This document shows, in pieces, positions 2,977-29,599 of a stretch of DNA of 32,000 bases; position 1 is the stretch's first letter; each line of letters starts with the position of its first letter. This DNA comes from an uncultured archaeon (GTDB lineage Archaea > Asgardarchaeota > Jordiarchaeia > Jordiarchaeales > Jordiarchaeaceae). The stretch is from contig CAZECW010000058.1 of the NCBI GenBank assembly GCA_964510585.1, forward strand, positions 1-32,000. The letters run 5' to 3'. A program made the position numbers and the translations under genes. Below the pieces are notes generated by a model that had not been told where the DNA came from, ran no database searches, and worked only from the letters and a program-made list of their open reading frames with translations.

Positions 2977-3554
2977 TTTCATATCCCCTCTAACTTTAAA
3001 TACACAATACCACATCTGCGTTTTCAATTTTTCGATAAACCACCCACTACAAAAACATGCAACAACGGCTCCCTGACAAGCCAACCTGAAAAATAGCAAA
3101 TTCCTACCACTCAAGCACCCGATTCCCACACCAAAAGATACATCATAAACCAGGCAATGGGCAAACCCCCCTACAGGTAAACACTCAACCCACAATTTTA
3201 GTTCAAAGATTCAAAACTATGCTTACCCCTCTAATTACTCACCAAAACAGTACCATCAACAACTTGCTTCATAATTCACAATAACTAGATACTTTTAAAT
3301 ACAACAACTTTTAGGAGTGGCATAGGGAAGAAACCACAACAAATAATCGAAATTTAGGATAATAAACAAAAAAGTGTTTTCTCAGAATTGTAAAAAATTT
3401 AAAAACAACCTGATCAAAATTAGATGCATAAACCCATAATAAGTACAGCGACGTAAATCTTCCCCAAGTGCATAAGCCTAACATTTAATAAAAAACAGTA
3501 ATAAATAGTACAGCTCATCTTTCATTCATCTATTGAAGAGAGGAGGTGAATAAT

Positions 3555-5039
3555 TTGAGCACAAAAAACATACCGCTCAAACAAATCAGCAAAAACATTT
3601 GGGAAATACCCAAAGATTTCCGCCCCTACATGAGGGTGCCCGCAAGAATCATCGCAAACGACTACCTCATGAAAGACATACACAAAGACCAAACCCTAAT
3701 CCAAGCGGCAAACGTAACCAGCCTACCTGGAATAAAAAAATTCTCCGTAACCTTGCCCGACACATGAAGAGAATCACCTCACCTGCGGGAAGCACACCAG
3801 GGCTACGGATTCCCAATAGGCGGAGTAGCCGCAACCGACTATGAAGAAGGAGTCCTAAGTCCAGGAGGCGTAGGATACGACATCAACTGCGGTGTTAGAA
3901 TAATCACAACCAACCTCGAAAGAAAAGACGTCGAAGAAAAAATAAAAATCCTAACACAAGAAATCTTCGACAACGTTCCCAGTGGCCTAGGCTCCAAAAG
4001 AAAAATTAAACTCTCAATGGGAGAACTAGACGGTATACTAGCCGAAGGCGTCAAATGGTCCATCGAAAAGGGATTCGGCTGGGAAGAAGACGCCCTATAC
4101 TGCGAAGCAAACGGAAGCCTAAAAGAAGCCGACCCCACAAAAGTATCAACCAAAGCAAAAGAAAGAGGCGTCGCACAAGTAGGCACACTAGGAGCCGGCA
4201 ACCACTTCCTCGAAATCCAATACGTCGAAAAAATCTTCGACCAAGAAGCAGCCAAAATCTACGGACTAAGAGAAAACCAAGCCACAGTCATGATACACAC
4301 AGGTTCAAGAGGACTAGGACACCAAGTATGCTCCGACTACCTAAGAGTAATGGAAAGAGCCACAAAAAAGTATGGAATCGAACTACCAGACAGAGAACTA
4401 GCAGCAGCACCCGGAAAAAGCCCCGAAGGCCAAGACTACCTAGCAGCCATGGCCGCAGCAGCCAACTTCGCCTGGGCCAACAGACAAAGCATAACCCACT
4501 GGGTAAGAGAATCCTTCCAAAAAGTATTCGGAATGTCAGCAGAAGACCTCGAAATGCACCTAATCTACGACGTAGCACACAATATAGCCAAAATCGAAAA
4601 ACACAAAGTCAACGGCGAAACCAGCACAGTCTACGTACACAGAAAAGGCGCCACACGCGCATTCCCCCCAGAACACCCCGAACTACCACAAAAATACAGA
4701 ACCATAGGACAACCAGTCATCATACCCGGAACAATGGGAACCGCCAGCTACATCCTCAGAGGACGAAAAGAAGCCATGGAACTCAGCTTCGGGTCAACCG
4801 CTCACGGAGCCGGGAGGGTGATGAGTAGGAATGAGGCGATTAGGAGTTTTAGGGGTGAGAGTGTGAAGGGTAAGCTTTTGTCTGTGGGTATTCTTGTTAG
4901 GGCTGCGAGTATTGAGGTTGTGGCTGAGGAGGCTCCTGAGGCTTACAAGAACGTTGATGAGGTGGCTAGGGCGTCGCATGATGCGGGTATTGCTTCTCTG
5001 GTTGCGCGTCTGCGTCCCTTGGGTGTCGTGAAGGGCTAA
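3555..5039 (+). CDS. rtcB: RNA-splicing ligase RtcB, two exons (3555-3761 and 3792-5039), about 484 aa after removal of a 30-nt intron
   Basis: Both parts are in the same frame; the joined sequence gives LPD|[67 protein letters not shown]; TTG start 3555 with GGAGGTGA SD at 3542-3549; 3792-4016 is open although missing from the ORF track. Confidence 0.95.
3762..3791 (+). other. Putative BHB-type pre-mRNA intron (30 nt, in-frame TGA at 3765-3767)
   Basis: Central 4-bp helix CCCG(3756-3759)/CGGG(3786-3789); 3-nt bulges AC|A (3760-3762) and AA|G (3790-3792); flanking pairs CA/UG on the intron side and UG/CA plus UCCGUA(3744-3749)/UACGGA(3804-3809) on the exon side; cutting after the 2nd bulge nt restores the conserved protein motif. 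Confidence 0.85.
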
Positions 5040-28924: not shown

Positions 28925-29599
28925 TTATGATGTTTTGGGTGTAGTTAGCTTTTCAACTATTTTGTCCCAGATATCTGTATGTTCGCCTTCTGAGAGCACT
29001 TTGGTTCTTTTTATTTCGAGGGCACCCTCTCCGGGGCAGGCTGTTACGCACAGTCCGCATAAGATGCATTTATTCTTGTCTACCTCTATTTTAGGGGGTT
29101 TGTCCCAAGGATGTTCACGTTTTGGTATTTTTATGGCTTCTGTAGGACAGATGAGTGCACAAGTGGCGCATCCTCCCGGGCATTTTTGGGGATGGGCTAC
29201 AATTTCACCCTCAAAGTACTTTTTAGCAGTTTTTTCCTCATCTTTTGCTAGTTTTACCTTTTCGGCTTTAAGATTGGGTAGTGCGCCCCCTTCCACAACT
29301 ATTAGCTTTGGCTCTTCGTTGATTAGGAGTTCAAGGGCTTCGAAGGGACAAAGATATACACAAATTCCACAAAAACTGCACTTCTTCTTGTCAACAAGCA
29401 CAGAAGGCACATCGGACAATTCTTTCCCAGCGGCTCCGACCGGTCCTCTTTGGATGGCTTCCTTGGGGCAGACAGTTATGCATATTCCGCAACCTGTACA
29501 CTTTTTTCTGTCAAGTATGAGTTTAGCGTCTACATCTATCATTTTCATTTCAGTTACTATTTTGTCCTTTTCAATTTGTTGACCATAATACGGAAACAT
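28925..29599 (-). CDS. fwdF: Polyferredoxin, FwdF-like (4 x 4Fe-4S motifs)
   Basis: CTGCGICITVCP, CSFCGICVYLCP, CPGGCATCALICP, CILCGLCVTACP; ATG 29599 with GGTGA SD; fwd context. Confidence 0.8.
   Translation of the reverse strand: MFPYYGQQIEKDKIVTEMKMIDVDAKLILDRKKCTGCGICITVCPKEAIQRGPVGAAGKELSDVPSVLVDKKKCSFCGICVYLCPFEALELLINEEPKLIVVEGGALPNLKAEKVKLAKDEEKTAKKYFEGEIVAHPQKCPGGCATCALICPTEAIKIPKREHPWDKPPKIEVDKNKCILCGLCVTACPGEGALEIKRTKVLSEGEHTDIWDKIVEKLTTPKTS

Follow-up and report, generated by a model that had tools for sequence, protein, structure and literature searches.

Positions 3762-3791 of the 32,000-nt stretch of archaeal DNA analysed here (the window) are, in our assessment, very likely a genuine BHB-type intron with a relaxed 3' site in the pre-mRNA of the genome's sole rtcB gene. 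The insert (ACATGAAGAGAATCACCTCACCTGCGGGAA) is 30 nt long, lies in frame and carries a TGA at 3765-3767, in agreement with the first-pass annotation of this DNA, which had described rtcB as split by exactly 30 nt with an in-frame stop and had predicted that its deletion yields an intact protein of about 484 amino acids. Joining 3761 to 3792 does result in a single open reading frame (3546..5039) of 487 codons from a GTG at 3546 or 484 codons from a TTG at 3555, the latter being the likely start, downstream of a Shine-Dalgarno-like GGAGGTG. Removal of the intron gives LPD^AHQGYG (caret, splice junction or cut site) in a register identical to that of uninterrupted orthologues, and the predicted spliced junction reads TTGCCCGAC^GCACACCAGG, with GAC^GCA at the nucleotide level. 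Protein homology leaves no freedom in placing the 5' junction (D^A), a one-base shift leading to an altered product.

A stop-tolerant Pfam search aligned the RtcB profile (positions 1-426, match starting at 3702) contiguously over the break, with '1 TGA' inside the match. Exon 2 alone matches PF01139 at profile positions 21-426 (E = 1.5e-170) and aligns to residues 67-481 of Pyrococcus horikoshii RtcB (E = 6e-175), and a tblastn comparison with the intron-less orthologue of the sister family leaves a gap at exactly the 30 inserted nucleotides. The break falls between Asp65 and residue 66, one residue before His67 (P. horikoshii numbering), while the DINC, NHF, HTGSRG, AHN and AHGAGR motifs are all encoded in exon 2. 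One rtcB copy is present in the window genome (3.78 Mb, 96% complete). A homing endonuclease adjoining rtcB was considered and rejected: the flanking gene encodes aIF5B (GTP_EFTU and IF-2 domains), and no Pfam match was obtained for the ORF closest downstream. The coordinates of all features are collected in Table 1.

It should also be mentioned that the strand composition flips abruptly within the 3' part of rtcB (window 4600-5000), from A+C-rich to G+T-rich. On the plus strand, AT and GC skew are +0.56 and -0.27 at 4600-4799 and -0.19 and +0.51 at 4800-4999. The flip is also found in two homologues, is weaker in two others and is absent from the sister family, and blocks of opposite skew repeat along the window. 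A possible cause is deamination acting unequally on the two strands, together with a boundary of replication or recombination.

Table 1 Coordinates of the rtcB intron, its predicted RNA motif and related features. Plain positions refer to the window; G000 denotes the window genome.
Feature	Position	Strand	Basis or remark
rtcB exon 1	3546..3761	+	72 codons from GTG 3546; ends FSVTLPD; protein conserved in all intron-bearing homologues
rtcB intron (putative)	3762..3791	+	30 nt; tblastn gap; homologous inserts in 9 sequences
rtcB exon 2	3792..5039	+	415 codons + TAA; Pfam PF01139, P. horikoshii RtcB alignment
Exon-1 strand of exon-exon helices (UCCGUA, CCUUG)	3744..3755	+	RNAalifold; covarying pair
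Central helix, 5' strand (CCCG)	3756..3759	+	exon 1; pairs with 3786-3789
5' bulge (AC^A)	3760..3762	+	cut after 3761; 3 nt, fits BHB exactly
Intron hairpin (inner helix h')	3763..3785	+	81.5% of cells paired, 9 sequences
Central helix, 3' strand (CGGG)	3786..3789	+	intron; pairs with 3756-3759
3' splice site (AA^G)	3790..3792	+	cut after 3791; 3-nt bulge or within 8-nt loop 3790-3797
Exon-2 strand of exon-exon helices (CAGGG, UACGGA)	3798..3809	+	RNAalifold; pairing test
cbf5 intron (candidate), 31 nt, phase 1	L148:1797-1827; G000 C18:27688-27718	-	removal restores catalytic GHAGTLD^PKVTG
ahcY intron (candidate), 30 nt, stop-containing	L151:2095-2124; G000 C4:20568-20597		removal restores signature TKWE^FDN
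tyrS intron (candidate), 30 nt, stop-containing	L151:3647-3676; G000 C4:22120-22149		removal restores EPSG^LFHLG, HIGH region
Census candidates, 24-33 nt (moaE, aconitase-family, POR alpha, Alba, two others)	G000 C140:43121-43147; C181:4163-4195 (-); C72:43794-43826 (-)		
Same census set, continued	G000 C20:52146-52175; C150:~29198-29255; C82:29071-29094		
Motif-only intron candidates	G000: gatE-like gene, hypD-like gene, loci on C180, C193, C24		
EndA subunit gene	G000 C157:27006-27584	-	
EndA subunit gene	G000 C126:19612-20208	+	

The nearest relatives of the window genome are hot-spring and wetland-soil metagenome-assembled genomes of Candidatus Jordarchaeia / Freyarchaeota, including the closed chromosome CP147778 (3.6 Mb). 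In all six genomes of the genus, and in three JGI metagenome contigs recovered with a pattern anchored on the intron 3' end and exon 2, rtcB carries an insert at an identical codon boundary. It measures 30 nt in eight of these nine sequences and 29 nt in CP147778, where it shifts the frame of the only rtcB and where the predicted spliced junction is CCCTGCCCGAT^GCTCATCAGGGC. Every copy contains an in-frame stop (seven TGA, two TAA), and the interior of the insert diverges widely between copies. Outside the genus, the motif PDxHxGYG, read directly, is uninterrupted in each of the four sister-family genomes that gave a match, as well as in 21 rtcB genes of the same phylum. No internal stop in rtcB was found outside the genus among the approximately 150 matches listed from a 400-genome search of the phylum, which gave 284 further matches beyond this list. 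The motif is also intact in 73 of 80 more distant loci; use of the break site by other lineages was rejected, the only broken records among the 80 loci being four from Freyarchaeia/Jordarchaeia. As part of one joint explanation with the intron itself, we regard it with good confidence as probable that the insert was gained once, at the base of the Freyarchaeia/Jordarchaeia genus, and has been retained since.

The same data bear on three other ways of accounting for the interruption. That the insert is a sequencing or assembly artefact is vanishingly improbable, given its presence in nine independent assemblies, among them a long-read-validated closed genome (PMC11291895). The first-pass annotation had called for read support of the 30 nt, and the stretch is contained wholly or partly in independent assemblies and public runs from 14 studies, including hot-spring runs of several studies; in two runs it is complete. 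A decaying pseudogene, with ligation taken over by another enzyme, could present an in-frame stop and, in one species, a frameshift. However, dN/dS amounts to 0.046-0.064 across exon 1 and exon 2 (between species with dS saturated between two subclades), the break always occurs at one site with fold and length preserved, and the tRNA genes of the lineage almost all need a ligase (PMC11291895). A second intact rtcB, with relaxed selection on the present copy, had been named beforehand as a possible objection; neither the window genome nor the closed genome contains a second rtcB, and at a dN/dS of about 0.05 we consider decay extremely improbable.

Translational recoding, be it read-through of the stop, selenocysteine insertion at the TGA or a T4 gene 60-type bypass of the hairpin by the ribosome, is likewise highly improbable. 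The stop does lie close behind the break and beside a hairpin, and selenocysteine machinery has been reported for the lineage (PMC11291895), but the stop is TAA instead of TGA in two copies, one insert of 29 nt shifts the frame, and read-through would insert 10 residues of variable sequence after Asp65 and ahead of His67 in a conserved motif. A bypass would also call for take-off and landing codons that match, yet upstream of GCA CAC there is neither a GAC nor an ACA in register on which to land, and homologues differ at these bases. Taken together, the conservation of the insert, its stops, the dN/dS values and the distribution effectively exclude a pseudogene, an assembly error, selenocysteine insertion or read-through, and an insertion at the protein level.

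A different type of interruption was observed in two other Asgard genomes (G013:C38:129362-132151 and G034:C1:1558414-1561179), in which rtcB lies inside an open frame of about 1000 amino acids and the match breaks off close to the DINC metal site, some 33 residues into what corresponds to exon 2. The split resembles an intein, which would represent a second element type targeting the same part of rtcB.

The 66 nt surrounding the insert (3744-3809) are predicted to fold with a free energy of -20.5 kcal/mol (z = -2.8), a stability reached by one of 200 shuffled sequences. An outer exon stem between UCCGUA (3744-3749) and UACGGA (3804-3809), as originally proposed, is predicted for the transcript, and both the exon helices and the central helix emerge independently in RNAalifold. 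The initial description of the motif as a canonical BHB holds for the central helix and the 5' bulge and goes too far at the 3' site. A 3-nt 3' bulge requires a closing exon helix of 1-2 bp (G3755-C3793 and U3754-A3794), whereas an alternative conformer, in which CCUUG 3751-3755 pairs with CAGGG 3798-3802 and encloses a 3' loop of 8 nt, is calculated to be 4-6 kcal/mol more stable in all nine homologues. Because the 8-nt-loop conformer is more stable and the fourth pair of the central helix is G.A in four homologues (G-C in the other five), the modelled motif is a relaxed BHB, at its 3' site, and not a canonical one. Relaxed motifs of this kind are cleaved by broad-specificity EndAs, according to one study (PMC5829648).

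Pairing was also assessed in a 66-column alignment of the nine rtcB sequences covering the exon-exon helices, the 4-bp central helix and the intron hairpin. Overall, 88.9% of cells were paired, compared with 40-45% when partners were slid by 1-3 columns. Exon helices reached 94.9%, and the intron hairpin of the window is the weakest of the nine. The first-pass annotation had anticipated insertions at this site in related rtcB genes with covarying pairs in the central helix. The insertions are there, while covariation is located elsewhere: three of the central pairs are invariant in all nine sequences, and the three pairs that change on both sides comprise one exon-exon pair and two pairs of the intron hairpin (22-40 and 23-39 in the alignment). 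The exon-exon pair, 3753-3800, occurs as U.G, U-A and C-G and involves a Leu first and a Gln third codon position, both synonymous sites. This covariation is based on nine related sequences with few independent changes, and the observed score was reached by 9 of 500 shuffles. On the exon-1 strand of the motif, four of five codons are nucleotide-invariant, as against 20% of comparable codons gene-wide.

With respect to transcripts, none of the listed runs that contain the window rtcB is on record as RNA. Four wetland metatranscriptome runs compared with the closed-genome relative yielded two contigs of 100% identity (L037 1223-1415 and 1965-2189), which lie in exon 1 and exon 2, respectively, neither bridging the intron at L037 1472-1500. 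When the 45-aa junction peptide was searched against 5.8 billion proteins, the only match was an 82%-identical fragment of an uninterrupted RtcB from another lineage. We infer splicing of the rtcB transcript from the sequence itself.

The window genome encodes two EndA paralogues, located on other contigs, whose ORFs are both uninterrupted. The alpha subunit (192 aa; best PDB matches 3p1z_B and 3ajv_B) retains the catalytic Tyr, His and Lys and is nearest to the catalytic subunits of Aeropyrum, Sulfolobus and Pyrobaculum, which belong to crenarchaeal heterotetramers, while the beta subunit (198 aa) is without the catalytic His. Going by family membership, we infer that the host EndA would be able to cut non-canonical motifs. 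The tRNA genes of Freyarchaeia are 92-95% intron-bearing (PMC11291895). In the window genome, 96% complete at 3.78 Mb, ARAGORN detected only nine tRNAs, two of them with implausible 'introns' of 564 and 2238 nt, and evidently most tRNA genes of this genome escape recognition on account of introns that are non-canonical or multiple.

Expression of rtcB can be envisaged as follows. CCCG and upstream bases of exon 1 would pair with the 3' end of the intron and with exon 2, and a heteromeric (alpha-beta)2-type EndA would cleave 3' of C3761 and of A3791, generating 2',3'-cyclic phosphate and 5'-OH termini. RtcB already in the cell would then ligate the two exons and restore the conserved motif. Unspliced mRNA, as had been pointed out in advance with an estimate of about 70 residues, would yield only a fragment of 70-73 aa that contains no catalytic motif, all downstream motifs being located in exon 2. 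New RtcB would thus very probably require RtcB that is already present; if RtcB is the only 3'-P/5'-OH ligase, its synthesis would depend on both EndA and RtcB.

Introns of this type appear not to be confined to rtcB. A homology-free genome scan, combining the BHB motif with ORF fusion in three versions, hardly exceeded its slid-partner controls, if at all (340 vs 275-325; ~1700 vs ~1700), the signal being drowned out by junctions between adjacent genes, and a tblastn census was used instead, in which the ORFs of the intron-less sister genome (2.14 Mb, whole) were compared with the window genome. A short insert with a stop or frameshift was found for 24 of the 1257 ORFs with a solid counterpart, and about nine of these 24 combine a full central helix with a near-perfect intron stem at boundaries defined by homology. 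They are located in rtcB, ahcY, tyrS, moaE, an aconitase-family gene, the alpha subunit gene of 2-oxoacid:ferredoxin oxidoreductase (POR alpha), Alba and two others. Such mini-introns would therefore be present in about 1% of the conserved genes, whose functions are diverse (~9/1257, plus cbf5). In stop-tolerant family searches, tyrS showed three internal stops and ahcY one, and cbf5 was truncated at the profile start. ahcY and tyrS are neighbours in the window genome, and the inserts in cbf5, ahcY and tyrS each present a 4-bp central helix and 3-nt bulges. Intron ends of the form 'A...AA' were considered as a signature and dismissed: they hold for rtcB, ahcY, tyrS, cbf5 and moaE and fail for the introns on C72 and C181. 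An enrichment of mini-introns in genes of tRNA biology was likewise not upheld, the census matches being functionally mixed.

The census is central to the question of whether the rtcB intron is there for a purpose. The first-pass annotation had suggested a possible feedback loop on splicing capacity, conceptually like XBP1 splicing. On a selective reading, the intron would be an autoregulatory device through which ligase production is tied to the capacity for splicing or to its load, by XBP1/HAC1-like logic. The self-dependence follows from the anatomy of the gene, the stop sits in the second intron codon in eight of nine copies, synonymous sites on the exon strand of the motif are conserved, and the ligase gene is interrupted while the endA genes are intron-free. 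However, an early stop and synonymous constraint are equally expected of any BHB intron that keeps its fold, there is no evidence of regulated or partial splicing, and the same intron type occurs in those roughly nine conserved genes of unrelated function, as well as in cbf5. Furthermore, the loop would be positive and not homeostatic. We therefore judge an autoregulatory role unlikely. The same low probability is assigned to a broader proposal, according to which EndA and RtcB routinely splice mRNAs in this Asgard lineage and the rtcB intron is a selected positive-feedback or checkpoint element, a forerunner of eukaryotic RtcB-dependent regulated mRNA splicing.

Most likely, the dependence of RtcB on itself is a tolerated by-product of the spread of mini-introns of about 30 nt in a lineage where nearly every tRNA gene is interrupted, and the rtcB intron is probably not a purpose-built regulator. 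Selection for the loop is disfavoured because the affected genes are functionally unrelated and because, in a positive loop, low ligase levels lead to still less ligase. A third argument is that the intron would add little risk, since a cell without RtcB is already non-viable when nearly every tRNA needs ligation.

If these predictions hold, endonuclease-type introns of about 30 nt would interrupt roughly 1% of the conserved protein genes of an Asgard archaeon, its sole ligase gene among them, and organisms closely related to eukaryotes would routinely use protein enzymes to splice mRNA as they express their genes. A ligase locked into self-dependency could be inherited only, with no restart from zero. 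At a practical level, current gene callers mis-annotate such essential genes as broken, and the segment 3744-3809 offers a compact natural substrate for studying the specificity of Asgard EndA.

Splicing of mRNA without a spliceosome is known from eukaryotes. In metazoan XBP1, cleavage by IRE1 is followed by ligation by RtcB, and in yeast HAC1 the ligase is Trl1. In both cases, an endonuclease that leaves 2',3'-cyclic phosphates acts first and a tRNA ligase second, and intron removal alters the translation product. These systems employ IRE1 and twin stem-loops, are regulated by stress and target a transcription factor. The rtcB intron would involve another endonuclease and another RNA motif, and its likeness to XBP1 and HAC1 is one of analogy only.

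Closer counterparts exist among archaea. The non-canonical tRNA introns of Thermoproteales and of Freyarchaeia/Atabeyarchaeia (PMC11291895; 10.64898/2026.10.13.758758) resemble the rtcB intron in their length of about 12-35 nt, their relaxed BHB variants, the association with a broad-specificity two-subunit EndA and their proliferation within one lineage. In contrast to the rtcB intron, which lies in an open reading frame and adds a stop or frameshift, they reside in tRNA genes. Neither of the two studies of Asgard tRNA introns (PMC11291895 and preprint 10.64898/2026.10.13.758758) mentions mRNA introns or rtcB. The BHB intron of Haloferax volcanii HVO_1309 (PMC7714728) is similar in that an mRNA serves as EndA substrate, but it is located in the 5'-UTR and not in the coding sequence.

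The most direct parallel is the intron in the pre-mRNA of crenarchaeal cbf5, a pseudouridine synthase gene (Watanabe 2002; Yokobori 2009, PMC2738675); apart from it and the HVO_1309 case, no BHB intron in an archaeal mRNA had been reported as of 2020 (PMC7714728). As the first-pass annotation had supposed, an rtcB mRNA intron turned out not to be described in the literature searched, where cbf5 was until recently the only known host of a BHB-type intron in a coding sequence; rtcB would be a new one. The cbf5 and rtcB introns are both short, interrupt coding sequence and, for rtcB by prediction, form a BHB from exon and intron. Both would rely on an (alpha-beta)2 host's endonuclease for tRNA splicing and on a tRNA ligase, predicted in the case of rtcB, and both show lineage-restricted gain or loss, with the window genome's own cbf5 also interrupted, by 31 nt. 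Unlike crenarchaeal cbf5, for which splicing was demonstrated experimentally, rtcB has an Asgard host, a relaxed 3' site and splicing that is predicted. The principal difference lies in the host gene, which here is the ligase itself, so that its product would be needed to complete its own mRNA.
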